This document shows, in pieces, positions 404-63,972 of a DNA stretch of 64,000 nt (the stretch's first letter is position 1; every line of letters starts with the position of its first letter). The notes under the pieces are model-generated. The model was not told the origin of the DNA. It did no database searches and worked only from the letters and a program-made list of their open reading frames with translations. The position numbers were made by a program, and so were the translations under genes. The stretch is from an uncultured bacterium (GTDB lineage Bacteria > Patescibacteriota > Minisyncoccia > UBA6257 > 2-01-FULL-56-20), in NCBI GenBank assembly GCA_963807165.1, contig CAWDZM010000001.1, positions 32,214-96,213 on the forward strand. The letters run 5' to 3'.

Positions 404-1471
404 ATGACTGAAATGGACACACCTTATGTTCGTAACGATATAGAAAAATTTAGGCTGGTTGTGGAAGAGCTCGAGGTTTGTCGTGAAATGATAAAGTCGG
501 CATCTCACGTGAAATCTCGCACGGCTCTCATCTTAATGGATAATCTTGCAGAGATTTTGGCTATAAGAATTTATGAAGCAGCTTTTAAAAGGGATAATAC
601 TTTCGCTCTAGTAGAAAGGCCTCGTATAAATTTTGCAGAAATTAGGGATGCAAAAGGTGATTTTTCTAGAAAGATATCTCTCTTAGAAAAATTGGGGGCT
701 ATTTCTAAATATGATGCCAGCGTATTAAGAGTCAGTCATCAATATAGGAATGCGGCTTTTCATAGGGATACTCACAACGTATCTATAATAAGAAGCTTGG
801 CGATGGTTTGTTTTCGGAGTGTGTGCCATCTCTTTGTCGTCAATTATAATATCGGGGTTTCGTATGGCGGGATGGAGTCTTTGAGATGGCTCGTCCCGTA
901 TGCCAAAAATACAACTCGTTTGAATTTTCGGGAGGATTCTCAAATAATTGCGGACAAGCTCTTGAGGGGGATAACAAAGTCAGCAGCAACTCTGCGGAAG
1001 CATTTTGCGAAAGATATCCTTGAGCGCTTGAAGGATATCGGAAGCATAAGAAATGAAATCGGCTATGGTAATCCCGACTTGCTTTTGAATGAATTTTTGA
1101 GGTTGGCAGAATTCGACGAAGAACATCCATTTGCAAAATATGTTGAATATTATGCGTTTACCAGGAGTCTCGCTACGGCACAGCTAGATTCTCTAAAGGT
1201 GCAAGGCCAATTATTTGACCTTAAAGAAAAGGCTGATAAAAAAATGGAAGAGGATTTGAAACTATTCAAAGCGACTGTTTCTACAAAGATACTCGATGAG
1301 GCAGTAAATTTTTTGCGAAGGAGTGAATCTTTAAAATCGGCGGATAAAATCCTTTTTGCTTATCAGCAGCTGGATTTTAAACTCTCAAGATTCGAGTATT
1401 ATCTTTGGAAATTGGAAATAGAGTGGGACGAGCGTGTCCAAATGGAGATAGATTTTGCGAGGGGGAAATAG
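404..1471 (+). CDS. hypothetical alpha-helical protein with a HEPN-like Rx4H motif (YRNAAFH); putative RNase
   Basis: 355-aa ORF. AAAGGTGGG Shine-Dalgarno-like sequence 5 nt upstream. R-N-A-A-F-H matches the HEPN Rx4-6H signature. Low GC. Confidence 0.45.
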   Translation: MTEMDTPYVRNDIEKFRLVVEELEVCREMIKSASHVKSRTALILMDNLAEILAIRIYEAAFKRDNTFALVERPRINFAEIRDAKGDFSRKISLLEKLGAISKYDASVLRVSHQYRNAAFHRDTHNVSIIRSLAMVCFRSVCHLFVVNYNIGVSYGGMESLRWLVPYAKNTTRLNFREDSQIIADKLLRGITKSAATLRKHFAKDILERLKDIGSIRNEIGYGNPDLLLNEFLRLAEFDEEHPFAKYVEYYAFTRSLATAQLDSLKVQGQLFDLKEKADKKMEEDLKLFKATVSTKILDEAVNFLRRSESLKSADKILFAYQQLDFKLSRFEYYLWKLEIEWDERVQMEIDFARGK

Positions 1472-2020: not shown

Positions 2021-3700
2021 TTAGGTAGAAGAAGCGGTCGTAGTAGAAGCTTCGCCCCAGGGGAGAAGATAATTTAATAATTCAGGAGAATTTAATAGCG
2101 GGCCAAGAGCGGTATAGTAGGCGTCCGCAGCTGCTTTTACTTTATTTATATCAGTGGTGTTCTGATAGACATTATTGAATAATGCTGTTTGGTAAAGTAT
2201 GTTTAGCATCACAGAATTAGAATCTATGGCTAATGCTTGTTTATATTTCGCGGCGCCTAATAAGTATTCACCCTGAATCGTATATAGCTTTCCCCAGTAC
2301 ATATAGGGGGTTGGGTCGTTTGGATATTTGTTTGCTAGCCATGAGAAAAATGTATTGAAGTTTGTAGTGGTGCTGCTCTCTACAAAATAGCCCAAAGATT
2401 GATCCAGTTTATCTTCATTGTAGGTACTTACATCGAGGACGCCTGTTAATCCCGTGCTTTCAAGAAGTTTGAGTACCTGCTCTTTTGGTAGTGAAGATGC
2501 TTGCGTAAAATATTGAGCCTCAAAAGATTGTAGGAATGACTGATAAGTTATGTCGTTCACATAAAGTCTGTTATCAAACATAGACTTCAAATACTCTTCT
2601 GCTAAAGGATAATTATTTTCCTGAGAATATATTTCTGCCATTTGACCATCAACATAGGCGTTCCAAGTGCCTGCGTCATCATTTATATAAGCTAAGAATT
2701 GTTTCTTTATGTTCGGGTCTCCAATGCCTTGTCCGACATTTTGGAGGTGTTGGTCGAGGAGTGTAAATTCATTTTGTGAATTTTGCATTAAAGCCAGAGC
2801 GACATCGTAGTTTTGCTTCTCGGTGTACGCAGGAACGAAAAATTGTTCTAGCATAGCTTTATCAACTGCCCCAATATAAAAACCCTCATCATGGGGCGAT
2901 AAAACGCCCAATTTAACTAATCTATTAATCCGATTCTGCACATCAAAATAGGCGTATATATTGGAATCAGGGAAAAATAGCGGGAATCTTACAACGGGAT
3001 TTAGATATGTAATAAGGCCAGTCGAATCTGTTTCGACGAGATTGGCCATTCCGAGGCAATTAGAATCTTGAAGGATAAAATTATCTATGGGTTTTTTTTG
3101 TAACCCATAGTATCGGAGAACTGACGGGGGGATAGAAGTCTGTATAAGTGTGAGCGGAGGGATGGATTCTGAAGTGTCGGTGAAATCAATTGTTGGAGGT
3201 TGGCTTAGTACATAGGAGCTTGATTTGAGAGGGGTCGAAAGAAGTGCGTCATAAATTCCTTGATTGATATTTTGGTCTATCTCTGTATTTGATGTAAATG
3301 AGCCAGAAGAAGTTAGCGTTAGTGGTTGAATGAAAGAAACTGTAAATATTTGATTTGGATCGCAACTATTTCCGTGCAAATATGCGATTTGTTGATGGAC
3401 TATATAAGTAGAAACAAGCGCGATCAAAAGAAGAAAAACATAGAATATTTTTTTATTCCTATTTAGTTGTTTATATAAAGCGAGTGCGGTGAGGGCGATG
3501 ATTCCTAAAAAAGTTAAGGTGATAAATATATATCTGTTGAAAATGAGAAAAAGGTAATAATTTATAACAGTAAATCCGGGTGCTAAAAATGAGAAAACAT
3601 TTGTGAAGAGAGCTAATAAAAAAGCCGAAATTAACCCACCAATAACGGTGATGAGAATGCCCTGCCGAAACTCTTTTGTCTTTCGAGGTTTTTTCTCCAT
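2021..3700 (-). CDS. integral membrane protein: N-terminal multi-TM region plus a large extracytoplasmic TPR-like/Tyr-rich domain
   Basis: 559-aa ORF. About 4 hydrophobic helices at the N-terminus. C-terminal repeats resemble TPR. Low GC. Confidence 0.55.
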   Translation of the reverse strand: MEKKPRKTKEFRQGILITVIGGLISAFLLALFTNVFSFLAPGFTVINYYLFLIFNRYIFITLTFLGIIALTALALYKQLNRNKKIFYVFLLLIALVSTYIVHQQIAYLHGNSCDPNQIFTVSFIQPLTLTSSGSFTSNTEIDQNINQGIYDALLSTPLKSSSYVLSQPPTIDFTDTSESIPPLTLIQTSIPPSVLRYYGLQKKPIDNFILQDSNCLGMANLVETDSTGLITYLNPVVRFPLFFPDSNIYAYFDVQNRINRLVKLGVLSPHDEGFYIGAVDKAMLEQFFVPAYTEKQNYDVALALMQNSQNEFTLLDQHLQNVGQGIGDPNIKKQFLAYINDDAGTWNAYVDGQMAEIYSQENNYPLAEEYLKSMFDNRLYVNDITYQSFLQSFEAQYFTQASSLPKEQVLKLLESTGLTGVLDVSTYNEDKLDQSLGYFVESSTTTNFNTFFSWLANKYPNDPTPYMYWGKLYTIQGEYLLGAAKYKQALAIDSNSVMLNILYQTALFNNVYQNTTDINKVKAAADAYYTALGPLLNSPELLNYLLPWGEASTTTASST

Positions 3701-3879
3701 GCCCAGCCACTTAACTTTGACCCCCTAATAAGCTCTATCTTAAAGGACTTTTCATATTCCCGAAAGAGAGGTTTGGCTAGCTCTAATTGGAAATGAGAAA
3801 ATCAAAAGATAATAAATTTACCAAGCTTGGAGATGGAAATACTGAAATTACTCGGTATTTTGCGCTATAATATCCCCAC

Positions 3880-5413
3880 ATGCTCCAATCCACCGCCCTA
3901 GCCCTGCTCAAAACGGGCGAGAACGTATTCCTGACCGGCGCGCCGGGCGCGGGGAAGACGTACGTCCTCAATCAATATATCGATTTCCTGAACCAGTACG
4001 AGGTGGAGGCGGCCGTCACGGCGTACACCGGGATCGCGGCGAGCCACATCAACGGGCGGACGCTCCATTCGTGGGCGGGGCTGACGCGCGGGCCGATGCA
4101 CGAGGACGCGCAGGAGGTGGATCGCGTGCGGGCGAATGAGTATCCTGACCGACCGCATCCGCCGCGCGCGGGTGCTTATTATAGACGAGATCAGCATGCT
4201 GCATCCCGCGCAGTTCGATCGCGTGGATCTGATCTGCCGCACCGCGCGGAATTCGCACGAGCCGTTCGGCGGATTACAGCTCATCTGTTGCGGCGATTTC
4301 TTTCAGATCCCGCCGGTGAACGGCGAGAGTGAAAAGTTTGTGATCGACTCCGTCGCGTGGAAGAACGCGGACATGCGCGTGTGTTATCTGACGGAACAGC
4401 ATCGGCAGGCGGGTGCCGTCGATGGGAGCGGTGTTTCAAGCAGCGGCGAACTCTTAGAGATTCTGGACGCCATCCGCGCGGGCGCCGTGACGCCGGCGGT
4501 CGTTGCCGCGCTCGACGCGCGTATCGGAGCGGCGATCGATGCGCCGATCGGCATCGCGCGACTCTACACCCATCGCGAGAATGTGGATGAGATCAACGCC
4601 GCGGAACTGCGCAAGCTCGCGACACCGGACGTCGTCTACGACGCGTACCAGAGCGGCCCCGCGGCGCTCGTCGAAAAATTAAAAAAAGATAACGACGTGC
4701 CGGACAAATTCGTTTTAAAGATCGGCGCGCGCGTGATGTTTACCAAAAATAATATGGGCGCGGGATACGTGAACGGCACACTCGGCGAAGTGATCGGGTT
4801 TGAGAACGGGGGAGATGGGAACAACGGCGAGTCGGTGGGTAAAAATGCCGCTGGTGCACCAATGCCGCAAACCGCCACCGAAGCGAACCCCGTCATTATG
4901 ACGTTTGATAAAAAGAAAATAACCCCAGGCCGCTTTCAGTGGAAAGTGGAGGAAGGCGGCAAAGTACGCGCGAGCGTTTCCCAGCTGCCGCTCAAACTCG
5001 CGTGGGCGATCACCGTGCACAAGAGCCAGGGGATGACGCTCGACGCCGCCGTGATCGACCTTGGCCGCGCCTTCGACCGCGGCATGGGCTATGTGGCGCT
5101 CTCGCGCGTGCGCGAGCTTAAGAACATCTCCTTGATAGGCTTCAACGCCGTTGCTCTGCAAGTGAGCCCGCGCGTGCAATCGCTCGACGCCGGCTTCCGC
5201 GCCTCCTCGCGGCGCGCAGAGGACGACATTGCCGCGCTCCCCGCCGACGAACTGCGCGCCGCGCAGAGCGAGTTCATCCGCCGCGCGGGCGAGGAGTCGG
5301 GCCCGAAAGGCCATTCTGCGACAGCCGGCCATGAGGCCGGGGCCGGCACTGTCTTTGACGACCTGCGCATTGACTACACCGACATCGACGAAATGCCCGT
5401 GGCGGATTTTTGA
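3880..5413 (+). CDS. PIF1/RecD-like superfamily 1 helicase, split by a +1 frameshift near 4125-4140
   Basis: Walker A GAPGAGKT. Motif II LIIDEISM and GGLQLICCGDFFQIPPV sit in the second frame. C-terminal ITVHKSQG and GYVALSRV motifs. GC-rich. Two track ORFs (3880-4332 and 4136-5413) join into one helicase. Confidence 0.7.
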
Positions 5414-22087: not shown

Positions 22088-22166
22088 GGGATTTAGAAAA
22101 ACACCCTCTTTTTTCACCTAGTGATAAGAATCAACGGTGAAAAAAGAGGGTGTTTTTCTAAATCCC
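22088..22166. terminator. 31-bp perfect inverted repeat (AT-rich stem, ~17-nt loop) downstream of the PCD gene
   Basis: Arms GGGATTTAGAAAAACACCCTCTTTTTTCACC / GGTGAAAAAAGAGGGTGTTTTTCTAAATCCC are exact reverse complements. Acts as a bidirectional terminator-like hairpin. Confidence 0.5.
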
Positions 22167-24996: not shown

Positions 24997-25437
24997 TTGC
25001 TTTTATCAGCGACCGCCGTTTTACTTAAAAAAATGAAGATGGTATATATATATATGAATATGGAAAAGATAAACTCAACATTCGAATCAGAGCCAGATTC
25101 AATCGATATCGAAGATCCTGAAACGGCGCGGGAATTTATTCGTCAACGCATGGAAAAAGATGGAGATTTGCCGACCGTAACAGTTCCGATGGAATATGCC
25201 GAAGAAGCACGCAAGGGAATTGTGCCTCATACCACATGGATATATGACGCGCTCATTGCTGGTACACTAGGAAAGAAGCCTTATATGCCAGACAATTCTC
25301 CTCGAGCTTTATTTCGTATTAAGGCAAAACCCGAAGATGTGATGCCGCGATTCACTGGCCCTGATAAGCATTTTCACGGGGTGGTGGTATTCAAAAAACC
25401 TATCGCTCCAGACTTACTCGAAGAAGTGTACGCATAA
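24997..25437 (+). CDS. hypothetical protein (start uncertain, possibly 25034 or 25054)
   Basis: ORF track. Low GC. Confidence 0.35.
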   Translation: MLLSATAVLLKKMKMVYIYMNMEKINSTFESEPDSIDIEDPETAREFIRQRMEKDGDLPTVTVPMEYAEEARKGIVPHTTWIYDALIAGTLGKKPYMPDNSPRALFRIKAKPEDVMPRFTGPDKHFHGVVVFKKPIAPDLLEEVYA

Positions 25438-25467
25438 AAAAATCGCTCCTCAAGAGCGATTTTTTTA
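25436..25467. terminator. bidirectional intrinsic terminator between convergent genes
   Basis: ATCGCTC-CTCAA-GAGCGAT hairpin flanked by an A-run and a T-run. Confidence 0.55.
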
Positions 25468-25476
25468 TGAACGTTA

Positions 25477-25701: not shown

Positions 25702-25787
25702 GTCTTTGGTTTGAGTTTATTGAAAGTATTATAGAGGAAAAGGGGATTTTACGCAAGTTAATAGGCCGGTACAGGAATTCCAAGCCG

Positions 25788-26309
25788 CTAATCTACTCGC
25801 ACCTTCAGCTTATGGATCTTCTTCTTATTCGCTTTCGGCAGGGTTACCGTCAGAATACCATTCTTGAACTTGACCTCCGCGCCTTCCGGATCAATCTCTT
25901 GCGGCAATATAATAGAGCGGCCGAACTTGCCCCAGTAGCATTCCTGGTAGAGATAGTCCTCATCGCGCACGGTCTTCTCGCGCTTGCGCGATCCACGGAT
26001 GGCGATCGAGTCGATGGTGACGTTCACATCAATGTCTTCCGGATCAACGCCCGCGATAGCGGATTCGACGACGATATCATTCGCCGTTTGATAGACATCA
26101 ACCGTAAGCTGACCTTCCGGTTCGCCATCAGCCCAGAGATCTTCCTTTTCTTTTGTGCGGATCATTTTTGGGCGCGCAGTGGAAGCGGGTGCGGAGGCAA
26201 CCGCGCCGGTGTTCGCCCGCACAAGTTCCACGCCATATTCGCCATCGGCCTCCGTCTTTGCGCCGGCCAGATCCTCAAAAAACTTTTCGTCTTCGCTGTT
26301 TATGATCAT
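25788..26309 (-). CDS. Hsp20/alpha-crystallin family small heat-shock protein
   Basis: Alpha-crystallin domain: PKANKKKIHKLKV / GILTVTLPK. Confidence 0.8.
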   Translation of the reverse strand: MIINSEDEKFFEDLAGAKTEADGEYGVELVRANTGAVASAPASTARPKMIRTKEKEDLWADGEPEGQLTVDVYQTANDIVVESAIAGVDPEDIDVNVTIDSIAIRGSRKREKTVRDEDYLYQECYWGKFGRSIILPQEIDPEGAEVKFKNGILTVTLPKANKKKIHKLKVRVD

Positions 26310-30216: not shown

Positions 30217-30221
30217 AGGTA

Positions 30222-30263
30222 AAAACAAAAGCCCCACCTTTTAAAAGGTGGGGCTTTTGTTTT
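30222..30263 (+). terminator. intrinsic terminator (AAAACAAAAGCCCCACC-TTTTAAAA-GGTGGGGCTTTTGTTTT)
   Basis: 17-bp arms plus T-run. Shares the GCCCCACC/GGTGGGGC arms with the hairpin at 35549-35670. Confidence 0.7.
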
Positions 30264-30291
30264 TGTATACTTTTAAAGTACACTACAGAAA

Positions 30292-35405: not shown

Positions 35406-35544
35406 GGATCAGGAAGAGATCGATCTTGAAGAGGCGTTAGTGAAGATCCGCGAAGCGGGGGAGTTGATCAAGTTGAGCAAAGATCGTTTAACGGAAGTGG
35501 AGAACGAATTCAAGGAAATAAAGACAAAGATAGAAGCGGAATAA
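35311..35544 (+). CDS. xseB: exodeoxyribonuclease VII small subunit
   Basis: 77 aa with LEEALVKIREAGELIKLSKDRLTEVE coiled-coil, typical of XseB. Confidence 0.8.
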   Translation: MAKTTKQSAAGQKPHDLKKYLEDIKQISDWFEDQEEIDLEEALVKIREAGELIKLSKDRLTEVENEFKEIKTKIEAE

Positions 35545-35548
35545 AAAA

Positions 35549-35670
35549 AGCCCCACCTCTTAAAAGGGCGTCTCGGAGCCGCGAAGGCGGCGAGAGCCGA
35601 GGCGGCCGGTCAGCAGCCGCGACTCTTAGGAGTCCCGCGGGAGAACGCCGTACCTTTTAAGAGGTGGGGC
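35549..35670. repeat. GC-rich ~86-nt structured element (35567-35652) in the loop of an 18-bp AT-rich terminator hairpin; copy 1 of a 3-member family
   Basis: Arms GCCCCACCTCTTAAAAGG / CCTTTTAAGAGGTGGGGC are exact reverse complements. The insert is ~90% identical (reverse complement) to 54388-54470. Confidence 0.6.
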
Positions 35671-35681
35671 TTTTGTTATTA

Positions 35682-36263
35682 CTACTTTGTATCTTTATCG
35701 CGCGCTACCTTCAACGCATCTGCCCACCAGATGAGCTGGTCGAGCATCATATCGGCGTTTGCGTCGAATGACTCCGTTTTCAATATTCCTTTTTCATCCA
35801 GCATGCTCCATGGGTTGACCATGTGCACCGCGGTGCGGATGGAGACCATCTGCTGTTCGGCGACGACGGGGCGCAACTGATCGACGGCGCGTGCAGCACC
35901 GACCGTGCCGTATCCCACGAACGCCACCGGCTTCTTGTGCCACTCCTTTCCGACATAATCGAATGCGTTCTTGAGTACCGCAGGGTATCCATGATTATAT
36001 TCCGCTACGGTAAAGATGAAGCCATCAGCTTCGCCGATCTTTGCGGTCCATTGCGCTGAGATCGGATACGGGTATGCGCCTTCTTTCATCGCCGCCATCA
36101 TCGGCGACATCGCTTCATTAAAGAGGGGGAGCGGGTAATCGCGCAGATCCAATAACTCCACATCCAATCCTTTTGTTTTTGCCTTTTCAACAATCCACTT
36201 TGCCGGCTGTTCGCCGAACCGATTCTGCCGCGTCGTCCCGAGAATAACTTTTATTTTTAACAT
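35682..36263 (-). CDS. NADPH-dependent FMN reductase family flavoprotein
   Basis: KIKVILGTTRQNRFGE N-terminus. Flavodoxin-like fold signature. Confidence 0.7.
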   Translation of the reverse strand: MLKIKVILGTTRQNRFGEQPAKWIVEKAKTKGLDVELLDLRDYPLPLFNEAMSPMMAAMKEGAYPYPISAQWTAKIGEADGFIFTVAEYNHGYPAVLKNAFDYVGKEWHKKPVAFVGYGTVGAARAVDQLRPVVAEQQMVSIRTAVHMVNPWSMLDEKGILKTESFDANADMMLDQLIWWADALKVARDKDTK

Positions 36264-45303: not shown

Positions 45304-45346
45304 ATCAGTATTTTAAAATCACAAATTGTGATTTTAAAATACTGAT
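45304..45346. repeat. 43-bp near-perfect palindrome ATCAGTATTTTAAAATCACAA-A-TTGTGATTTTAAAATACTGAT; copy A
   Basis: Exact reverse-complement arms seen directly. Lies between convergent glycosyltransferase and recG. Confidence 0.6.
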
Positions 45347-52254: not shown

Positions 52255-54358
<2,104 letters not shown>

Positions 54359-54369
54359 GGGGAAGAAGA

Positions 54370-54488
54370 GATAACAAAAAGACCCATATACTTCGGGGAC
54401 GGCGTTCCAGCCTGCTGGCTGGCCGCCTTGGCTCTCAGCGCCTTCGCGCTTCCGAGACACCCCTCAGCACATGGGTCTTTTTGTTATC
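54370..54488. repeat. GC-rich 83-nt element (54388-54470) in the loop of an 18-bp AT-rich hairpin right after the fusA stop; copy 2, inverted relative to copy 1
   Basis: Arms GATAACAAAAAGACCCAT / ATGGGTCTTTTTGTTATC are exact reverse complements. Insert matches reverse complement of 35567-35652. Confidence 0.6.
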
Positions 54489-54511
54489 TTCAGATATTTG
54501 GGGAATAATTT

Positions 54512-54584
54512 GCCCTCGTGGTCCAATGGATAGGGCGTCTCGCTTCTAGCGAGTACGATGCGGGTTCAACTCCTGCCGAGGGCG
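54512..54584 (+). tRNA. tRNA-Arg (anticodon TCT)
   Basis: Acceptor GCCCTCG/CGAGGGC, D-arm GTCC-AATGGATA-GGGC, loop CTTCTAG, T-arm GCGGG-TTCAACT-CCTGC. Confidence 0.8.
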
Positions 54585-54611
54585 CGGATTCTGAAAGTGA
54601 GTATAAAATAT

Positions 54612-54640
54612 AAAGACGTCTATAAAAAATAGACGTCTTT
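54612..54640. terminator. bidirectional terminator AAAGACGTCTA-TAAAAAA-TAGACGTCTTT
   Basis: Perfect 11-bp inverted repeat between the tRNA-Arg (+) and GIY-YIG gene (-) 3' ends. Confidence 0.5.
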
Positions 54641-54656
54641 ATTATGTCCACCCTAC

Positions 54657-54944
54657 CTATCCGACTTTCTGGTTGCAAGAAGGCCGAAGCTCAAGAATTA
54701 ATTCTTTTTCTCGATTCGATGGATCTCCCGATATAACTTCGCCAACCCAATGCGTGGGTATCTCCCGAGTTATATACTGGTTATCTCCATTCAAGTGAGC
54801 CAGTAGTCGCGTGCGGATATCTCCCTTACCAACATAGACCCACCTTCCTTGCTTAAAGAGACCGTACACGCCATTTTGATTTAGGTTTAGCGCTTCAATA
54901 TCTTGACGGCTAAAAGCTCGTGGCGTTTGTTGAATAAATGACAT
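54657..54944 (-). CDS. standalone GIY-YIG nuclease-domain protein (YhbQ/UPF0213-like)
   Basis: GVYGLFKQGRWVYVGKGDIRTRLLAHL gives GIY...YIG plus the conserved Arg. Glu in REKELI. Low GC. Confidence 0.65.
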   Translation of the reverse strand: MSFIQQTPRAFSRQDIEALNLNQNGVYGLFKQGRWVYVGKGDIRTRLLAHLNGDNQYITREIPTHWVGEVISGDPSNREKELILELRPSCNQKVG

Positions 54945-55203
54945 ATATCTTTTTATGGTGAATATGATCGACCTTTTGTTATTCGTAGGTGTTACAATAA
55001 TTGATCTAATATTAGCCCCTTATTATTGTATGTCAAGCTTGTCAAGTGTTCAATAATGTTTATACTAAAAGATGAAGATTTGGCGCTAGTATGAAAGAAG
55101 TCTATTTTAATAAGGACTATAAGCATTTGGCGGAATATTAAAAAATGATAAAAACTAAATAGACAGACATATATTTCCCCCGTAAGATTACTATAAATAA
55201 AAA

Positions 55204-55986
55204 ATGCCAAGTTTCAACGATCTAAAATTGGAGGATTGGAAAAATTCAGAAATCTGGACCGATAGTCTCTGGATTATTTCTGAAAGAGATAAAAGCGGGA
55301 AACACGATGGGTTTTACCACGGGAATTTTGTCCCTCAAATTCCTCGTCAATTAATTTCTCGCTATACAAAGGAAAATGAAGTTGTATTTGATCCATTTGT
55401 AGGAAGTGGTACAACCGCTTACGAAGCCGAAGAGCTGGGTAGACATTTTATCGGGGTAGATATCCAATCCAAGTTGATTAAATATATTAGAGAGAAAGTT
55501 GATGACAAGAAGTTTTTTTCAGAATTGATTGTTGGTGATAGTTCAGATGAAAACATTATCTCTACGATTTCTGATATTTTAAAAAAGAAGAAGAAAAGAA
55601 GTATTCACTTTGCGATATTGCATCCACCGTATGCCAATATCATTAAATTTAGCAATAACAAAGCAGATTTATCCAACGCAAAATCATTAAAGGATTTTCT
55701 CGATAGATTTTCTCTAGTTGTTAAGAATACGGTTTCTTTATTAGAAAAAAATCGATATTTAGCGGTCGTTATTGGGGATAAATATCAACAAGGGCAGTGG
55801 GTTCCGCTCGGTTTTTACTGCTTAAATGAGGTGCAGAAGCAAGGATTAACTTTAAAGAGTATAATTATAAAGAATATGGAAGGGAATAGGGGGAAGCAAA
55901 ATAAGGAGGGCATCTGGCGCTATCGAGCGCTATCGAGCGATTACTATATTTTTAAGCACGAATATATTTTTATATTTAAGAATTAA
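55204..55986 (+). CDS. N6-adenine/N4-cytosine DNA methyltransferase with permuted motif order (FxGxG before DPPY-like)
   Basis: Motif I FDPFVGSGTTAYEAEELGRHFIGVDI at residues ~70-95. Motif IV ILHPPY at ~136. Low GC. Confidence 0.7.
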   Translation: MPSFNDLKLEDWKNSEIWTDSLWIISERDKSGKHDGFYHGNFVPQIPRQLISRYTKENEVVFDPFVGSGTTAYEAEELGRHFIGVDIQSKLIKYIREKVDDKKFFSELIVGDSSDENIISTISDILKKKKKRSIHFAILHPPYANIIKFSNNKADLSNAKSLKDFLDRFSLVVKNTVSLLEKNRYLAVVIGDKYQQGQWVPLGFYCLNEVQKQGLTLKSIIIKNMEGNRGKQNKEGIWRYRALSSDYYIFKHEYIFIFKN

Positions 55987-55990
55987 AGTC

Positions 55991-56896
55991 GTGAGCGATA
56001 TCAAGGATCAATTGTCGGTGGTACTAGCGAAAAAGATTTTTGGAAATTCCAAGGTTGCGTTGGAATATTTAAAGCGACTGAATACTATCAAGGAAATTAA
56101 TGGCATCACAAGTAGAACTCTTACGCGCGGAGTTCGTGTGGGGTTGGAGGTGCTGGGTATCAATGCAGATAAAGATATCTGGCAAATAGTTGTTGAAAGC
56201 TGGGACTATGAATCTAGCAAAAAGATTATTCGAGGTATATTTAAGGAGGGAAATAAGTATAGGGTGGGAGTGGAAGCGGATGTGGCGATGGGAATTCTTA
56301 TTAAAGAGTGGGAAGCGTTGAGTTTGGGTAAAATCGAATGGCCATTCTCTCAGGGGGATTTTGATGGCTTTGTTCAGGGAATTAATAATTCTAGTAATGA
56401 ACTTGGGGTAATTAAGGATGAAAAAGTAAAAGCGGCGGCGGTGAAATATCGAAGAATTAAAGAAATTAATACTGTCAGAAACGATTTTATAGAGACTTTG
56501 ATTTTTGAAAAAAATGAAAATATTATTCCGACTCTAAGCCATCGAAGGGGAGTCGACTTCTTTATCGACGGAGTTCCTTTTGACCAAAAAGTTGCAAAAA
56601 GTCCAACAAATCAATTTAAAGTAAAATTCGGTGATGATTGGAAAAATGAGGCAATAAAAAATCCAGCATTAGTTGCTGAATATTTATATAAATATCAAGA
56701 CGAGGGTCGTTTCGGTGCTGATCCGCGCTTGCTTGTCGTTTATTTAGATGAAGATATTTCCATACAAAAAATTAGAGAAATTTTAGGGAAGATTGACCTT
56801 AGTGATCCTATGGAAATTCAATTTGAATTTAGCCACGAAGTCGGAGGGGCCAAAAACTATAAAACAAAATGTTTTGTAATACTGCTTCATAATTAA
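55991..56896 (+). CDS. putative type II restriction endonuclease (PD-(D/E)xK-like) between two methyltransferase genes
   Basis: Position within the R-M cassette. Candidate catalytic stretch RRGVDFFIDGVPFDQKVAK (D...D.K). GTG start. Confidence 0.35.
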   Translation: MSDIKDQLSVVLAKKIFGNSKVALEYLKRLNTIKEINGITSRTLTRGVRVGLEVLGINADKDIWQIVVESWDYESSKKIIRGIFKEGNKYRVGVEADVAMGILIKEWEALSLGKIEWPFSQGDFDGFVQGINNSSNELGVIKDEKVKAAAVKYRRIKEINTVRNDFIETLIFEKNENIIPTLSHRRGVDFFIDGVPFDQKVAKSPTNQFKVKFGDDWKNEAIKNPALVAEYLYKYQDEGRFGADPRLLVVYLDEDISIQKIREILGKIDLSDPMEIQFEFSHEVGGAKNYKTKCFVILLHN

Positions 56897-56906
56897 CACA
56901 CAATAT

Positions 56907-57974
56907 ATGAACTATATCGGGAGTAAATTATCTCTACTAAATTTTTTAGAAACATCCATCGATTCTGTTACCAAGGGAGAGCAGAAGACATTTTTAGATC
57001 TTTTTGCTGGCACCGGTGCGGTTGGTCTCCATTTTAAAAAGAAGGGGTACAAAGTCTATGCTAACGATTTGCAATATTATAGCTTTGTTTTAAATCGCCA
57101 TTATATAGGTAATCATAAGGAAATGGAGTTTGAGGGATTAGCAAATATAATCCCAGGAATAACGAGTGCTAAAAAGAGCGATAAAAAAAATCTTGTGTGT
57201 GAGTATTTGGGTTCGATAAAAGGAACAAAAGGATTTATTTATAAGAACTATTGTCCGGGAGGCACGGTCAATAGTTCGGTCCAGAGATTATATTTTTCAG
57301 ATGAAAATGGAATGAAATGCGATTCAATCAGGCAGAAAATTGAACAATGGAAAAAGAAATTACAGATTACAGATAATGAATATTACTTTCTTCTCGCTTC
57401 ATTATTAGAATCGATCGATAAACATGCTAATACCGCATCGGTCTACGGTGCTTTTTTAAAAAAAATAAAGAAGTCGGCTCTTAGGCCAGTCGTTTTAAAG
57501 CCAGCGAATTTATTTATTAATGACCATGAACATAAAGTGTTTAATGAAAATATAAATACTTTGGTAAAAAAAGTAAGCGGAGATATTTTATATCTTGATC
57601 CGCCATATAACCAGAGACAATATGCGACCAATTATCATATACTTGAAACTATCGCAAGATACGATAATCCTAAAATTCACGGTAAGACAGGATTGAGAGA
57701 TTATAAATCTCAAAAGTCTTTATACTCTTCGCGTCCCCAGGTTAAAAAAGCTTTTAGAGAACTTATATCAAACGCAAAAGTTAAATATATCTTTTTGAGC
57801 TATAACAACGAAGGGTTAATGACTATGCAAGATATAAAAGAGATTATGGGCACGAGAGGGGAATATGGTTTCTTTGCTCAGAAATATGGGCGTTTTAAAG
57901 CCGATAAAGATTCAAACCGGGGATACAAAGATAATAAAACAACTGAATATCTCCACTATGTTGTTTGTAAATAA
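56907..57974 (+). CDS. Dam-like (alpha-class) N6-adenine DNA methyltransferase
   Basis: MNYIGSKLSLL...FLDLFAGTGAVG N-terminus (motif X/I) and ILYLDPPYN motif IV, the D12-class architecture. Confidence 0.8.
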   Translation: MNYIGSKLSLLNFLETSIDSVTKGEQKTFLDLFAGTGAVGLHFKKKGYKVYANDLQYYSFVLNRHYIGNHKEMEFEGLANIIPGITSAKKSDKKNLVCEYLGSIKGTKGFIYKNYCPGGTVNSSVQRLYFSDENGMKCDSIRQKIEQWKKKLQITDNEYYFLLASLLESIDKHANTASVYGAFLKKIKKSALRPVVLKPANLFINDHEHKVFNENINTLVKKVSGDILYLDPPYNQRQYATNYHILETIARYDNPKIHGKTGLRDYKSQKSLYSSRPQVKKAFRELISNAKVKYIFLSYNNEGLMTMQDIKEIMGTRGEYGFFAQKYGRFKADKDSNRGYKDNKTTEYLHYVVCK

Positions 57975-58196
57975 AAAGAGTATCCTGGATCTGACTTTTT
58001 CCGCGCACTTGATGTTGTAGGCGCTAGTAATATAATTTATTCGTTCCTTGAAAGCTGACGGGGATTGGCTTGGGCCCTTCTTTTATTCTTGGACTAAATC
58101 TCCTTTATCCCCCCTCGGTAGTCGCTTCTGGCGATTGCCGCGGGGGCTGGTATAAAGGTTGAACAGTCCCGAGTAATAAACTAATCCTAAGCGACC

Positions 58197-58373
58197 ATGG
58201 CTAAACCTATTGTTGTAAAGACGGGTGGTAAGGTTCCGGTTTCGGGGCAGTACCGTCCGTCAGGCGGGAAAACGGAGGGCACCTTCACAAAAGGTGAACG
58301 CGTTCCGCCGAACAACGTTGGCGTGCGTCAATCTTGGACTTTGGTCGACAAGACCAAACACAAGGGCGACTAA
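58197..58373 (+). CDS. possible 58-aa small protein (GC-rich, Gly/Lys-rich)
   Basis: ATG...TAA ORF, MAKPIVVKTGGKVPVSGQYRPSGGKTEGTFTKGERVPPNNVGVRQSWTLVDKTKHKGD. Below the track size cutoff. Confidence 0.2.
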   Translation: MAKPIVVKTGGKVPVSGQYRPSGGKTEGTFTKGERVPPNNVGVRQSWTLVDKTKHKGD

Positions 58374-58645
58374 TCGCTAGCGTACCTCCTCGTCAGCTTT
58401 TAGGGAATATTTTATTTTTTCCACAGTCGTCTGTGCTACACTGATTCTACAACCGAATAGCCCATCAAGAGAGTGGAGATGCTAAGGGATCTGGCCCGAT
58501 GCTCCGCCCGCAACCGATCGACGATTCGACACGGTGCGAAATCCAACCCTTCACGGGGAAGATGCTTCTTTATCTCAACTGCCGTGTAGGCGGTTGTTTT
58601 TTTGCTCTTTTGCCGGCTGGAGATTAAAACCTTATTAAAAGAGTT

Positions 58646-58674
58646 TTGACTTTGGTGCTGGGCGGGCGGACAAT
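58646..58674 (+). promoter_or_regulatory. sigma70-like promoter TTGACT-17 nt-GACAAT, 6 nt upstream of ATG 58681
   Basis: -35 at 58646-58651 and -10 at 58669-58674. Leaderless geometry. Confidence 0.4.
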
Positions 58675-58680
58675 GATGCT

Positions 58681-59538
58681 ATGGCAAAGAAAAAAGCGAA
58701 GCAGAATACTCATCCAACGATCTTTGAAGAGAAAGAGGTTCGAAGGGTGTGGCGTAACGAAAAGTGGTATTTCTCTGTTTCTGACGTGGTGCAGGCGCTG
58801 ACCGATTCGAATGATGTGCGGCAGTATATAAAAAAGATGAGAACGCGTGATGCGGAGCTGTCTCGCAACTGGGGTACAATTTGTACCCTGGTTCAAATAA
58901 CCTCAAAAGATGGTAAAAAGCACGAGGAAAATATGTCGGATATTGAAGGCATCTTCCGTATCATTCAATCTATCCCTTCCCCGAAGGCCGAGCCATTTAA
59001 GCGTTGGCTTGCCAAAGTTGGCAAAGAAAGAATCGAGGAAATAGCGGATCCTGAGTTGGCGGTGACGCGGGCTAAAGAGATCTACGACAAAAAGGGATAT
59101 CCCAAAGATTGGGTTGATAAGCGCATGCGTGGCATTGCCGTTCGGAATACGCTTACCGACGAATGGAAATCGCGGGGAGCGTCGATGCGTTTTGAGTTTG
59201 CGATTTTAACCGACGAGATTTACAAGGCGGCGTTCGATAAAACCGCGAAAGAATACATGAAGCATAAGGGCTTGGATAAAAAAGCGGGTGATAATTTGCG
59301 CGACCATATGGGCGACATCGAATTGATCCTGACGATGCTTGGAGAAGCTACGACAACCAAGCTCAGCACGGAAAAGGATTCGCATGGATTGGAAGCGTTA
59401 AAGAAAGATGCACGCGTCGGGGGAAGCGTTGCCGGCAGGACTCGAAAAGATATCGAACAGCAAACGGGCAAAAAGGTAATTTCAAACGAAAATTTTAAGA
59501 ATAAGAAGCTTCTGAAAGGTAAAAAAATTCGCAAATAA
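58681..59538 (+). CDS. Bro-N-domain protein (phage antirepressor/DinD-like)
   Basis: YFSVSDVVQALT...IPSPKAEPFKRWLAKVGKERIEE matches the Bro-N consensus. The C-terminus resembles DinD. Confidence 0.65.
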   Translation: MAKKKAKQNTHPTIFEEKEVRRVWRNEKWYFSVSDVVQALTDSNDVRQYIKKMRTRDAELSRNWGTICTLVQITSKDGKKHEENMSDIEGIFRIIQSIPSPKAEPFKRWLAKVGKERIEEIADPELAVTRAKEIYDKKGYPKDWVDKRMRGIAVRNTLTDEWKSRGASMRFEFAILTDEIYKAAFDKTAKEYMKHKGLDKKAGDNLRDHMGDIELILTMLGEATTTKLSTEKDSHGLEALKKDARVGGSVAGRTRKDIEQQTGKKVISNENFKNKKLLKGKKIRK

Positions 59539-59658
59539 TACTACGCATAAACTTCCCAAGAAGGTCTGTATCGTTTTTGAAGATACAATCGTTACCGCGT
59601 ACGAGATCAGCTATGTAAAGGAAACGAAATATCCAGATCTTAAACGAGTAAGATAACT

Positions 59659-60075
59659 ATGATGACAACCAATTTAAACAAAAAGAAAATACTGGATTTT
59701 ATCGCAAATTTCTCGGAAATTGCGAAGAAAAATCAATGGGTTTCCCATTACGATGCGGATAGCGATTCGTTGGCCATCCGGACACCGAAACTTTCCGAGG
59801 ACGCGCGCAAGCGTTATCTTAACGACGAATTTGCGTTTTATCTTGATAATCAGAGCGAGGTGGAGGGCATCTTCATTGAATATTTCGTGAGCAACTTTGT
59901 GGCGCATCACAAAGATTTTAAGGATGTGGCAAAAGATATCAAAGGACAGGAGTGGAAGGAGGGGGACGGCGTGATGACGCTCAATAAGACGGAAATGAAA
60001 AAGCTTATTCCGGAACTTCAAGAGGCGATCATCGAATCGATTATCCCGAATCGAAATTTACAGGAAGCGGTGTAG
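59659..60075 (+). CDS. hypothetical protein with an N-terminal DUF2283-like region
   Basis: The VSHYDADSDSLAIRT...VEGIFIEYF pattern. Weak. Confidence 0.3.
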   Translation: MMTTNLNKKKILDFIANFSEIAKKNQWVSHYDADSDSLAIRTPKLSEDARKRYLNDEFAFYLDNQSEVEGIFIEYFVSNFVAHHKDFKDVAKDIKGQEWKEGDGVMTLNKTEMKKLIPELQEAIIESIIPNRNLQEAV

Positions 60076-60093
60076 CGAACTTAAAACCCTCCT

Positions 60094-60291
60094 ATGAAAT
60101 TGATTAATCCCTTCGCGTTCCTTAAAAAGGACGAGATAAAAGAGCCCCGTAAGAAGGAAGGCTCATTTTCTGATTTTTTCCTCAATGCTTCAGAGGCGGA
60201 TAAAAAAGAGGTTATTACAAGAGCTGCAAAACAGGCGAACGAAGAACAGCGACGGACATTTTTGGAATCGAGCGTATCGGCAAAGCGCTAA
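60094..60291 (+). CDS. hypothetical 65-aa protein
   Basis: ORF track only. Confidence 0.25.
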   Translation: MKLINPFAFLKKDEIKEPRKKEGSFSDFFLNASEADKKEVITRAAKQANEEQRRTFLESSVSAKR

Positions 60292-60311
60292 ATAAAAAAA
60301 CACTACGCTTT

Positions 60312-60875
60312 TTGTCCCACCTCACCCCTCCCTCATCCTCCCCGATCCCATACTCATTGCGCAGGAGCAGGCGGGCGCGGAGAATGCGGCTTGCGGTGCA
60401 TCGGGATGGGTCGGTGACGCTCACGACGCCCGCGTGGATGGCGGCGAGCGAGGGGGAGCGATTTGTGTTGCGGCATGCGGAGTGGTTGCTGTCCAAGATC
60501 GCGGCCTTTCGGCGTACGCCATTGCCTCCCGAACATTCCTATGGACGCGCGGAGTATCTGCGGCATCGGGAGTCGGCGCGTGCGCTCGTTGATTCCCGGC
60601 TTGCGGTGTTTGCTCCCGTGCTTGGGGTTTCGTATGGCCGGGTTTCCATTCGCGCACAGCGGTCGCTCTGGGGGAGTTGTTCGCGCCAGGGGAACCTGAA
60701 CTTCAATTATAAAATTTTGTTTTTGCCTGCTCACTTGCAGGACTATGTGATCGTCCATGAGCTTGCGCATGTGCGCGAGCTCAGCCACTCCGCGCGCTTT
60801 TGGGCGGTGGTGGCCAGCGTGCTGCCGGATCATATCGCCCGCCGCCGGGAGCTGCGTGCAATGCGATTGCTGTGA
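60312..60875 (+). CDS. YgjP/DUF45-family (SprT-like, M48-related) zinc metallopeptidase
   Basis: C-terminal HELAHVRELSHSARFW motif. Confidence 0.65.
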   Translation: MSHLTPPSSSPIPYSLRRSRRARRMRLAVHRDGSVTLTTPAWMAASEGERFVLRHAEWLLSKIAAFRRTPLPPEHSYGRAEYLRHRESARALVDSRLAVFAPVLGVSYGRVSIRAQRSLWGSCSRQGNLNFNYKILFLPAHLQDYVIVHELAHVRELSHSARFWAVVASVLPDHIARRRELRAMRLL

Positions 60876-60943
60876 AAAATCGTTGACATCACGCGCGGCC
60901 TCTTGATAGTCTTTATACAGTGGTCGAATGACTGGAGGATGGT

Positions 60944-61414
60944 ATGGATTTGATCCCGTTTACTATCACAAAAAATTCGGTTGTCCTTCTGAGAAGCGAT
61001 CGTGGGGTGGTGCCTATACTGCTCATCAAGGCCGGAGGCATCAATCTTCCCATTGGCTTCAATGTCTATGAGGCGCAACGGATTGTTACGCTCGTGCTGG
61101 GAGGCGAACCAAGTTGGTGTTCGCCCGACGATCTCGCAAGGAATGTGCTCGTCGTCCTAGGTTCCCCACTAACGAAGATTGTGATCGTGGGGATATCCGA
61201 CGAGTGTAATTTTCTCGCCAGGATTTTCTTTAAAAAGGGCGAAGAGGAGTTTTCTTTGCCCGCCCATCTGAGCGATGCGATTGTCCTCGGCCTGAGCTTC
61301 AAAGTCCCCATGTTCGTCGGGGAAAAAGTGCTTATCGAGGGGACTTCAAACGAGGGGACTGAGGGGTTGCTTTCGGCGATCCAAGAGTTCGCTCCACATA
61401 CCTTGGAAATTTAG
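60944..61414 (+). CDS. bifunctional nuclease (BFN/DUF151) family protein
   Basis: The LPIGFNVYEAQRIV...PSWCSPDDL...SDAIVLGLSFKVPMFV pattern. Confidence 0.65.
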   Translation: MDLIPFTITKNSVVLLRSDRGVVPILLIKAGGINLPIGFNVYEAQRIVTLVLGGEPSWCSPDDLARNVLVVLGSPLTKIVIVGISDECNFLARIFFKKGEEEFSLPAHLSDAIVLGLSFKVPMFVGEKVLIEGTSNEGTEGLLSAIQEFAPHTLEI

Positions 61415-61532
61415 TTCACTATCACTCATTATATGTGGCGCGTGCAGTATCCATCCCTGTCCCGCGCTATTTTTTTATAAAAAAATCGCAACCCTGTGAG
61501 GCTGCGATGCGTGCCAGTGGCCGCGGTTATTG

Positions 61533-61889
61533 CTAAGGCTTGATCACGACCTTGTAAGGTCGAATGGTGACGTAGATGATCTTTTCTTTTTGGAATGGTT
61601 CGCAGTCTTCCAGGGCTGTCAGTTTCCCTTCGCTTGGTCCGACGTCGATAATGATCTTTCTGTCCGGAAAAGATTTTTTTAGATCTCTCGTCAGTTCCGC
61701 CGCTATCTTCTTTTCTACCTTACCGGCCCCTTCTTGATTCTCCTCGGTGAGGTGCGTACCTATTGATACCTCAACGCGTTTGTAGATCCCTGCCCGCACT
61801 CCCGTGATATGCGGCGATCCATCGCAGTGCTCGTCGACTATTTCCTGGAATCTTGCTCGGATCTCCTCCTGCGTCCTTTTCTTATTCAT
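61533..61889 (-). CDS. hypothetical protein
   Basis: 118-aa ORF. No confident family. Confidence 0.35.
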   Translation of the reverse strand: MNKKRTQEEIRARFQEIVDEHCDGSPHITGVRAGIYKRVEVSIGTHLTEENQEGAGKVEKKIAAELTRDLKKSFPDRKIIIDVGPSEGKLTALEDCEPFQKEKIIYVTIRPYKVVIKP

Positions 61890-62005
61890 ACTACCTCCCG
61901 GGTGGAAATATAGCGCTGCCGCCAGAAAAAGTAAACCGGGTCTATTTACAAAATTATATTTGAATGGTATAATTCCATCCAGTTACATCTCTTAAGGAGG
62001 AGCGT

Positions 62006-62567: not shown

Positions 62568-63767
62568 ATGGCAGAAAAAGAAAAGTTCGACCGGTCCAAG
62601 CCGCACCTTAACGTAGGTACGATTGGCCACGTCGATCATGGCAAGACCACGTTGACCGCAGCGATCACCCACGTGCTCTTTATGAAGGGCTGGATCAAAA
62701 AAGAAGAGAATGTTTCACAGATCGACAATGCTCCGGAAGAGAAGGCGCGTGGTATCACCATTGCGTTGCATCACTCGGAGTACAACTCGGAGAAGCGCCA
62801 CTACGCGCACGTTGATGCTCCGGGTCACGCCGATTACATCAAGAACATGATCACCGGTGCCGCCCAGATGGACGGTGCAGTGCTCGTCGTTGCAGCGACC
62901 GACGGCCCGATGCCGCAGACCCGCGAGCACATTTTGCTCGCCCGTCAGGTAGGCGTGCCTTCGATCATCGTGTTCCTCAACAAGTGCGACATGGTGGATG
63001 ATCCGGAATTGATCGACCTCGTGGAGTCCGAAGTTCGTGAGCTCCTCACGAAGAACGGCTTCCCAGGCGACACTGCTCCGGTGATCCGCGGTTCGGCGCT
63101 CAAGGCGTTGAACTCGACCGATGCTGATTCCGCAGATGCCAAGCCGATCCTTGACCTCGTCAAGGCGATGGACGACTTCTTCCCGGATCCGGTTCGTGAA
63201 CTCGACAAGCCGTTCCTTATGCCTGTTGAAGATATCTTCTCGATCGAAGGTCGCGGTACGGTCGTCACGGGACGCATCGAGCGCGGCATCATCAAGGTGA
63301 ACGATGAAATCGAAGTCGTCGGCCTTAAGCCGACCGCAAAGACCGTCGTCACCGGTATCGAAATGTTCAACAAGAGCTTGGATCAGGGCCAGGCAGGCGA
63401 TAACGCAGGTTTGCTTCTCCGCGGTCTCAAGAAAGAGGACGTAGAGCGCGGACAGGTGTTGGCCAAGCCGGGCACGGTGACCCCGCACTCGGAGTTCGAG
63501 GGCGAGATCTACGTGCTCTCGAAAGAAGAGGGTGGCCGTCACTCTCCGTTCTTCAAGGGCTACAAGCCGCAATTCTATATCCGTACCACGGACGTGACCG
63601 GAGAGGTTACGCTTCCGGAAGGAATGGAAATGGTCATGCCGGGTGATACCGTCAAGATCACCGTCAAGCTCATCACCCCGGTCGCTTTGGAAGACAAGAT
63701 GCGTTTCGCCATCCGCGAGGGCGGCAAGACCGTCGGCGCCGGCGTCGTGACGAAGATCATCAAGTAG
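62568..63767 (+). CDS. tuf: elongation factor Tu
   Basis: [18 protein letters not shown] and NKCD motifs. 399 aa. Confidence 0.95.
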
Positions 63768-63872
63768 CAATATAAAACCGCCTTACGGGGACGGGTCGCG
63801 TTCTACTGAACGCGCTCTAACGCTCGGCACCTACGTGCCTCCGCGATTCCCCTTAAAGGCGGTTTTATATTG
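63768..63872. repeat. GC-rich 71-nt element (63785-63855) in the loop of a 17-bp AT-rich hairpin right after the tuf stop; copy 3, same orientation as copy 2
   Basis: Arms CAATATAAAACCGCCTT / AAGGCGGTTTTATATTG. Insert starts CGGGGACGGGTCGCGTTC and ends TCCGCGATTCCCCT, similar to the ends of copy 2. Confidence 0.5.
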
Positions 63873-63972
63873 CTTATATTTTTAATGTTCAGTCACGACG
63901 CCGGCGTCTCTGGAGATATGAGGAGGGATCAGACTAAGGTCGCATTTCAGAAGAATATAGAATCTTGTTACA

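Follow-up and report, generated by a model that had tools for sequence, protein, structure and literature searches.

A GC-rich three-way-junction element at the apex of hairpins downstream of fusA and other genes in Paceibacteria

Described repeats closest to the element

The REP, BIME and REPIN repeats are short, GC-rich and palindromic, occur in dozens or more copies per genome, and are extragenic, lying mostly just downstream of coding regions (PMC3733652). They are transcribed as 3' hairpins for which roles in termination, mRNA stabilisation and supercoiling have been proposed, and they evolve in concert within a genome (PMC3733652). Inverted pairs of the Neisseria DUS and Haemophilus USS also place a conserved sequence in Rho-independent terminator hairpins (PMC1852404). 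The element described here, first seen directly after the EF-G gene fusA (nt 54370–54488 of the window, i.e. of the whole 64,000-nt stretch of DNA that was analysed), belongs to an apparently undescribed family in the ultrasmall Paceibacteria of the Candidate Phyla Radiation (CPR), and the library literature searched on CPR terminators, structured RNAs and REP or MITE elements contained no description of it. To our knowledge, CPR bacteria are almost entirely uncultured and nothing has been established on how their transcription ends or their 3' ends are processed. As the most expressed CPR genes have this conserved and readily recognisable structure at their 3' ends, the family could serve annotators as a direct marker for the ends of transcription units, and it supplies a defined RNA or DNA element that is testable in the few available co-cultures, such as that of Minisyncoccus.

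The likeness to REP, BIME and REPIN lies in the type of repeat, its siting and its concerted evolution within genomes, and also in a hairpin (P2, see below) that starts with CGTC or TGTC, like the CGTC tag. The differences are considerable. REPs are single 20–40-nt palindromes or inverted doublets, whereas the Paceibacteria element is a three-way junction of two unlike hairpins, with long locus-specific arms and a strict sense orientation to the upstream gene. Its P2 stems are 6–7 bp long and GC-rich, without leading A-T pairs or a CCA tail, and no RAYT was seen near it in the sampled fragments. The CGTC, TGTC or CGTT before P2 is partly paired in P2a, and stems, loops and tail all differ from those of a REP palindrome with its tag. 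The CGTC-tagged REPs are the nearest described class, but the tagged palindrome that defines them is absent here.

Elements of the ERIC (IRU) and Correia types can act as terminators or as RNase III or RNase E processing sites. Like the Paceibacteria element, ERIC and the Correia elements of Neisseria measure about 100–150 bp, form long RNA hairpins in transcribed intergenic regions and are present or absent at orthologous sites. Their long stem, however, is built from their own conserved terminal inverted repeats and is accompanied by a TA target duplication, while here the long stem differs per locus and only the innermost 2–9 bp (inner P1) move with the core. Nor does the element look like a MITE in the strict sense, as its boundaries vary, the junctions of gain or loss show no direct duplication, and no autonomous partner was seen. 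The mycobacterial TRIT are intrinsic terminators of conserved sequence, and they share with DUS, USS and the present family a conserved sequence embedded in terminator hairpins downstream of genes. In those systems the hairpins are simple stems from an inverted pair of one short motif, whereas here the stem sequences differ and covary, and conservation resides in a branched cap with particular loops; moreover, the strict polarity of the element is not expected for uptake signals.

The ends of IS200/IS605 elements and the PATEs resemble the element in having two unlike, imperfect subterminal hairpins with bulges, without long terminal inverted repeats and without target duplication, and in strand-specific insertion. 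Two such hairpins are present here, with a left flank that varies (TTTC, TTAC, TGAAA and others). Unlike IS200/IS605, the element has no conserved target tetranucleotide and no TnpA/TnpB partner was found; its orientation tracks transcription rather than GC skew. A tblastn search with IS200 and IS608 TnpA sequences as queries, which is a weak test, gave no match in about 0.95 Mb of locus fragments plus the window. An integron attC site was also considered and rejected, as the right arm GTTATCT does not fit GTTRRRY and the hosts are tRNA, rRNA and housekeeping genes rather than cassettes. A Pfam scan of ten flanking ORFs detected no integrase domain.

The fusA copy and its surroundings

The element at nt 54370–54488 consists of a perfect 18-bp inverted repeat, GATAACAAAAAGACCCAT (left arm, nt 54370–54387) and ATGGGTCTTTTTGTTATC (right arm, nt 54471–54488), around an 83-nt GC-rich interior, in agreement with the preliminary description, and an inverted-repeat scan extends the arms to 30 nt at 87% complementarity. 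The same description had the arms begin 12 nt after a fusA TGA, which has to be corrected: that TGA (nt 54356–54358) ends a frameshifted frame, and the true stop codon (TAA, nt 54372–54374) lies inside the left arm, together with an A-tract. fusA (nt 52255–54374, + strand) is the upstream sense gene and is broken in the assembly into three frames (nt 52255–53121, nt 53105–54358 and a third), with apparent 1-nt indels near nt 53105–53121 and near nt 54322. The frame ending at the TAA encodes the conserved EF-G C-terminus, and fusA orthologues at four other loci (L003, L030, L131 and L133) have the same gene end. Since the fusA and L22 genes of a related long-read MAG (L001) are similarly fragmented, the breaks are probably assembly indels rather than signs of a pseudogene.

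All parts of the fusA copy are read here on the + strand. Inwards of the left arm, an imperfect inner arm (ATACTTC) and the 5' strand of inner P1 (GGGG, nt 54395–54398) occupy nt 54388–54398, and the GGGG pairs with CCCC at nt 54460–54463. The junction AC (nt 54399–54400) and hairpin P2 follow (together nt 54399–54427); in P2, the lower stem P2a (GGCG, nt 54401–54404, with CGCC, nt 54424–54427) is separated by a TT bulge from P2b (CCAGCC, nt 54407–54412, and GGCTGG, nt 54417–54422, closed by the loop TGCT, nt 54413–54416). Junction J2 (TTGG, nt 54428–54431) leads to hairpin P3 (nt 54432–54456), where P3a (CTC, nt 54432–54434, with GAG, nt 54454–54456) and P3b (AGCGC, nt 54437–54441, loop CTTC, nt 54442–54445, and GCGCT, nt 54446–54450) lie on either side of an internal loop TC/TCC. 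The returning strand (nt 54457–54470) comprises the junction ACA, the CCCC of inner P1 and an imperfect inner arm TCAGCAC. The right arm carries a T-rich tract (nt 54478–54489), as expected of an intrinsic terminator. The predicted RNA fold of the region has an energy of -64.5 kcal/mol, compared with -35.9 ± 3.8 for shuffled sequences (z = -7.5), and none of 200 shuffles equalled it. The covariance model of the family (see below) matches nt 54383–54472 with 86.9 bits (E = 3.6e-27).

The fusA site is, as first proposed, a copy of a dispersed GC-rich element at the apex of an AT-rich hairpin. Its + strand aligns with the - strand of a copy near xseB (nt 35540–35680) at 78% over 77 nt, which bears out the earlier alignment of the insert's reverse complement, and the P3 stem is compensated between the two, AGCGC-CTTC-GCGCT (nt 54437–54450) at fusA standing against GCCGC-CTTC-GCGGC at xseB; the same pairs covary across the 112 distinct members among the matches listed. 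The xseB copy (- strand) lies between the convergent genes xseB (+) and an FMN-reductase gene on the minus strand (nt 35682–36263), for which it is in sense orientation, and two model runs matched its core on the - strand with 47.7 bits (nt 35556–35661) and 57.5 bits (nt 35556–35667). In its P2 region it has an extra 22-nt hairpin, TCTCCCRCGGGACTCCTAAGAGTCGC (approximately nt 35587–35608), that recurs at four other loci (L009, L086, L100 and L105) and defines a subfamily of cores. A third copy (nt 63766–63874, + strand; arms nt 63766–63784 and 63856–63874, core nt 63775–63861, 73.7 bits) directly follows the tuf stop codon. The last coding nucleotides of tuf, CGCCGGCGTCGTGAC (nt 63737–63751), are perfectly complementary to nt 63892–63906, beyond this element, and the same is seen at loci L002 and L003.

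The stem GACCCAT/ATGGGTC of the fusA copy is followed by TTTTTGTTATCTT, giving a GC-containing hairpin with a U-rich tract, and a GC stem with a T-run occurs in all three window copies; ordinary simple terminators are also used in the window. A simple terminator scanner passed over the fusA copy because its apical loop is about 83 nt long and branched. Placement at the 3' end of the unit, in sense and with the fusA stop within the arms, is that of an intrinsic terminator. The preliminary description had named the outer stem and T-run as the fusA terminator. The T-run does lie in the right arm, and the proposed role, which we infer from the family context (3' of genes, sense orientation, T-tract), is a plausible one. 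The tRNA-Arg(tct) gene (nt 54512–54585, + strand) begins 23 nt downstream of the right arm. The sole promoter-like match in this interval (TTGTTA, 17-nt spacer, AATAAT; nt 54481–54509) overlaps the right arm and ends 2 nt before the tRNA gene, too close to yield the full tRNA. Transcription from it would begin within tRNA-Arg, so that a complete stop after fusA is not certain, and the hairpin could be a processing site in transcripts reading through into the tRNA. The gene order fusA–element–tRNA-Arg is conserved in a metagenome orthologue (L131).

Between tRNA-Arg and tuf lies a low-GC island (nt 54600–62000; 33–36% GC at 55–58 kb), which harbors two DNA methyltransferases (nt 55204–55986 and 56907–57974), a Bro-N protein, a YgjP-like peptidase and a protein with a bifunctional-nuclease domain. 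The segment is probably a restriction-modification or mobile island whose insertion separated fusA from tuf, which normally form a pair. The window also contains a number of long, perfect intergenic palindromes that have no GC-rich core (nt 22088–22166, 25433–25469, 30221–30264, 45304–45346 and 54610–54642), with lengths of up to 44 bp or arms of 31 nt.

Census and structure of the family

EF-Tu of the window has no exact protein match on record. It is 96% identical to proteins of the Patescibacteria class Paceibacteria ('Minisyncoccia'), and at the loci around the corresponding tuf genes, tuf and fusA are each followed directly by the same GC-rich core, within arms that differ in sequence but are complementary. 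Far from being limited to the two copies initially reported, the element is a large family conserved across Paceibacteria. A degenerate P3 pattern scanned across GTDB genomes retrieved at least 112 stretches and, among the matches listed, most by far come from Paceibacteria MAGs, several of them per genome; the same pattern had no match in 2.9 million viral contigs. A covariance model (R1) was built from an alignment of 95 unique cores. Run with filters off, it recovers three copies in the window and no more, the next score down being 12 bits, and it gave at least 115 matches in 100 sources, the loci coming from about 40 Paceibacteria MAGs. Pattern matches outside the CPR (Myxococcota, Thermoleophilia, Prolixibacteraceae and others) were treated as chance because they lack the 5' motif and the arms, and lie in GC-rich coding sequence or in unrelated repeats. 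Of five such loci, R1 did not match L020, L042 and L070, and its weak matches to L055 (31.8 bits) and L022 (23 bits) were left out of later counts. Rfam 15 models returned only tRNAs from the window at the gathering threshold, and nothing relevant over nt 54340–54510 at E <= 10.

The core is a GC-rich three-way junction of about 70–90 nt, made up of inner P1, a junction AC, P2, a junction of about 4 nt, P3, and a junction that starts with A. P2 is a two-part hairpin with a T or TT bulge and a U-R-C-U loop, at least 90% conserved among the matches listed. P3 begins with C-[U/G]-C and continues through an internal loop UC/UCC into a 5-bp stem capped by a CUUC or CUAC loop. Across the 112 distinct sequences among the matches listed, 96% of cells in the helices are paired, compared with 72% in shuffles, and controls in which the helices were slid have 30–59% paired. 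Double changes occur in 20 of the 22 pairs, and the covariation score of 0.571 (0.168 for shuffles) was reached by none of 500 shuffles. By helix, inner P1 has 88% of cells paired and all four of its pairs covary, while the two P2 helices are 95–98% paired with double changes in 10/10 pairs. The search pattern did not impose complementarity on P3, and the middle pair of P3a, whose 5' base lies outside that pattern, is U-A in 65 and G-C in 28 sequences. A known ribozyme was rejected on account of the approximately nine unpaired junction nucleotides, the lack of a hammerhead core and the lack of an Rfam match. Inspection likewise spoke against a kink-turn in P3, where the UCC bulge is flanked by Watson-Crick pairs (C-G, and U-A or G-C) and not by tandem G-A.

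Loops, bulges and junctions also contain conserved bases outside the search pattern. This is a point in favor of an alternative that we consider unlikely, namely a dedicated cis-acting RNA signal, in which a protein or nuclease of Paceibacteria would recognise the conserved three-way junction within the 3' trailer. It could serve processing by RNase III or another enzyme and the 3'-end maturation of tRNA, rRNA and abundant mRNAs, or be released as a stable small RNA; the similarity of copies would then stem from selection and gene conversion and not from mobility. Against such a signal stands the manner of the covariation, which is nearly all Watson-Crick, one-sided changes and G-U being near zero (e.g. 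C-G 54, U-A 45, G-U 0 at one pair). G-U makes up about 1% of core cells and is no commoner than A-C mismatches; G-T (128) and A-C (155) are equally common among arm mismatches, leaving no strand asymmetry; and in 82 of the 106 elements among the matches listed the antisense strand has a fold that is equally good or better. No Rfam family matches, either. The near-absence of G-U is unusual for an element selected solely as RNA, yet it may not count against an RNA role, because perfect palindromes without a core are common in the window. Watson-Crick-only pairing may therefore be a general trait of palindromes in this lineage, for example through templated correction.

Gene context, polarity and turnover

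The upstream sense genes include those for tRNAs, 23S rRNA, EF-Tu, EF-G, SecY, L7/L12, S1, GroEL, GreA and LepA, as well as ATP synthase gamma, SSB, DnaB, GyrB, the small subunit of RNR, Hsp20 and others. Of 110 unique elements listed, 54 have only a strong upstream sense gene, 7 only a convergent downstream gene and 6 both, while 43 have neither by strict criteria. The orientation agrees with GC skew in 73/110 cases (66%), with 10 sense-only cases on the negative-skew strand, and an orientation set by replication was rejected on this ground; the 54 to 7 imbalance and the poor fit to GC skew indicate that orientation follows transcription. Among the matches listed, the 55 nt 3' of the core include a T-rich tract in 64/106 elements on the sense strand and 43/106 on the antisense strand, against a background of 19%, and about 40% of copies have no clear T-tract. 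Elements that follow the 3' end of 23S rRNA sit between 23S and 5S. One such locus (L032) has two opposed copies, at nt 687–774 (+) and nt 848–937 (-); the second, which is antisense to both rRNAs and absent from L108, L039 and L078, is an exception to the sense rule.

This strict sense polarity, and the sites between 23S and 5S and directly after tRNAs, where processing is needed, would suit the RNA signal introduced above. So would the arms, as their median length of about 27 bp (by a gapless search, which misses copies with internal loops; 34 bp in gapped alignment) would supply double-stranded RNA, and arms of about 27 bp are long enough for an RNase III substrate. If the core does bind a factor, it points to a lineage-specific termination or processing factor. 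The same context bears on a DNA-level site, which would be cruciform-prone or bind protein (gyrase or a nucleoid protein, cf. the BIMEs of E. coli), and which would handle supercoiling or transcription-replication conflicts at the ends of heavily transcribed units, with the RNA hairpin as a by-product. REP and BIME elements are gyrase and IHF sites downstream of operons. Placement where the most transcribed genes end, and Watson-Crick-only pairing on both strands, would be expected of such a site. However, a double-stranded site requires no strict gene orientation and no arms that touch or overlap the stop codon, T-tracts are more enriched on the sense strand, and no known protein is a candidate; we therefore regard it as very unlikely. 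Where the elements lie, their polarity, their T-tracts and the kinds of gene they serve all argue rather for a 3'-end or terminator hairpin that belongs to highly transcribed units.

Among 46 elements that follow a CDS, 31 have a left arm reaching at least 3 nt into the upstream gene; among 17 that follow a tRNA gene, the inverted repeat of 13 extends into the tRNA, by about 22 nt. The downstream flank thus contains, in degenerate form, the reverse complement of the 3' end of the gene itself, and the complementary flanks beyond the arms are inverted partial copies of the upstream tRNA. Convergent tRNA genes were rejected as the source of the extra complementarity, since ARAGORN and Rfam identified none and the T-stem would not pair. 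These flanks recall a further possibility, somewhat unlikely in our view, of a lineage-specific and as yet undescribed system, either a mobile DNA module that integrates at hairpin tips or a dedicated termination or 3'-processing signal that is recognised by a protein and found in Paceibacteria alone, combined with a process that perfects and extends palindromes. In its mobile form, the module would be specific for the dyad tip of the terminator hairpins that end highly transcribed genes, and its integration would be tied to the direction in which they are transcribed. The palindrome process would replace the sequence of the downstream flank by the reverse complement of the 3' end of the gene upstream, so that the flank would mirror about 22 nt of tRNAs or the stop-codon regions of coding genes.

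The element is kept after tuf and fusA in relatives with 89–96% EF-Tu identity (lowest in L118, 89%), whereas at 86–87% rpsJ directly follows tuf, with no element between them. At orthologous CorA, Hsp20, GreA, 5S and 23S sites, the whole hairpin is present or absent. The 3' end of the window's Hsp20 gene (nt 25751–25814), for instance, has just a 27-nt spacer where the orthologous site of L051 has a full capped hairpin. At the S1 gene, a simple terminator has only its outer stem in common with the capped orthologue. Among the fusA orthologues of the window, L030, L131 and L133, the outermost arm (GATAACAAAA/TTTTGTTATC) is kept while inner arms and cores differ. A metagenome scan for empty fusA sites at strain level gave two relevant orthologues, both of which carry the element. 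For the RNA signal, this record cuts both ways, since long retention at tuf and fusA favors it and dispensability at many orthologous sites does not.

Arms are locus-specific, being common to orthologous or duplicated loci only, and the idea that arms travel with the core was dropped because arms are common to orthologues only. Within single MAGs, by contrast, the cores of different loci can be 94–100% identical inside unrelated arms: those of L114 (atpG) and L053 (dnaB) are 100% identical, and the other such pairs (L109/L023, L060/L113 and L003/L012) fall at 99%, 97% and 94%. Identity within such pairs begins at about TT(T)GAAAGG or TTCGGGG and extends to CCTTTCAA or CCCCTCA (in one pair only from GGAC to CACC), with limits that vary, 2–9 nt before the AC junction. 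Over all cores, the median identity is 0.71 within and 0.66 between MAGs. As an evolutionary case, the core of the repeat is homogenised, and the enclosing stem evolves freely yet stays perfectly complementary.

Identical cores in unrelated arms would be natural for the relic of a selfish, non-autonomous ssDNA transposon, PATE- or REP-like and moved by a Y1/HUH enzyme, whose binding sites would be the end hairpins P2 and P3. It would insert at the single-stranded tips of terminator hairpins exposed on the non-template strand of genes with high transcription, with any terminator effect incidental. The imperfect hairpins with conserved bulges, the Watson-Crick-only covariation expected for DNA hairpins, the bias to highly transcribed genes and the polarity relative to transcription are all consistent with this, as is the CGTC or TGTC at the start of P2, comparable to the CGTC-type REP tag (PMC3733652). 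So is the core-less, perfectly palindromic 44-bp terminator at nt 30221–30264, which looks like an empty site because its arms are almost the same as in the xseB copy; in a comparison of the two, the xseB core sits at the exact dyad centre. We nevertheless judge such a relic improbable. At empty orthologous sites the arms are usually missing too, and the earlier picture of a GC-rich insert in a pre-existing arm pair is accordingly one of two readings, the other being that arms and core come and go en bloc. No transposase was found in the sampled fragments, nor were fixed element termini, a conserved target tetranucleotide or a target-site duplication, long retention at tuf and fusA suggests usefulness, and a within-genome median of 0.71 indicates no recent burst. 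Should the core be mobile, it would exemplify a kind of element directed at hairpin tips.

The reading that we favor, tentatively and with appreciable doubt, is that a REP/MITE-like branched module caps the intrinsic terminators of highly transcribed genes and is copied or homogenised in DNA. The hairpin at the 3' end of fusA would then consist of a locus-specific lower stem and the conserved module at its apex. The lower stem, with its 18-bp arms over the TAA, A-tract on the left and T-tract on the right, would be the working part of a Rho-independent and potentially bidirectional terminator. In the transcript, the pre-folded cap would bring both arms together, yielding a very stable terminator and 3'-end hairpin on genes under heavy transcription. 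Were the role of the cap thermodynamic alone, the strict sense polarity would be left without an explanation, as would the conservation of loops and junctions. Cores that are identical within unrelated arms, hairpins that come and go at orthologous sites and pairing confined to Watson-Crick suggest copying or conversion of the module in DNA, between terminators of one genome; the route may be gene conversion, or insertion into palindromic terminators at their dyad centre. Palindromes in these genomes would be kept perfectly Watson-Crick.

Two other structured sequences were met in the sampled loci. In a Liptonbacteria MAG (L119), a different branched hairpin follows rpsJ (nt 1633–1754; a weak R1 match, 28.5 bits), with reverse-transcriptase (RVT_1) and RNase H genes downstream of it (nt 2340–4563) and no Rfam intron match. 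In another Patescibacteria MAG (L028), the 23S rRNA gene is fragmented by insertions and carries a group I intron (nt 1077–1285; Rfam, 82.5 bits).
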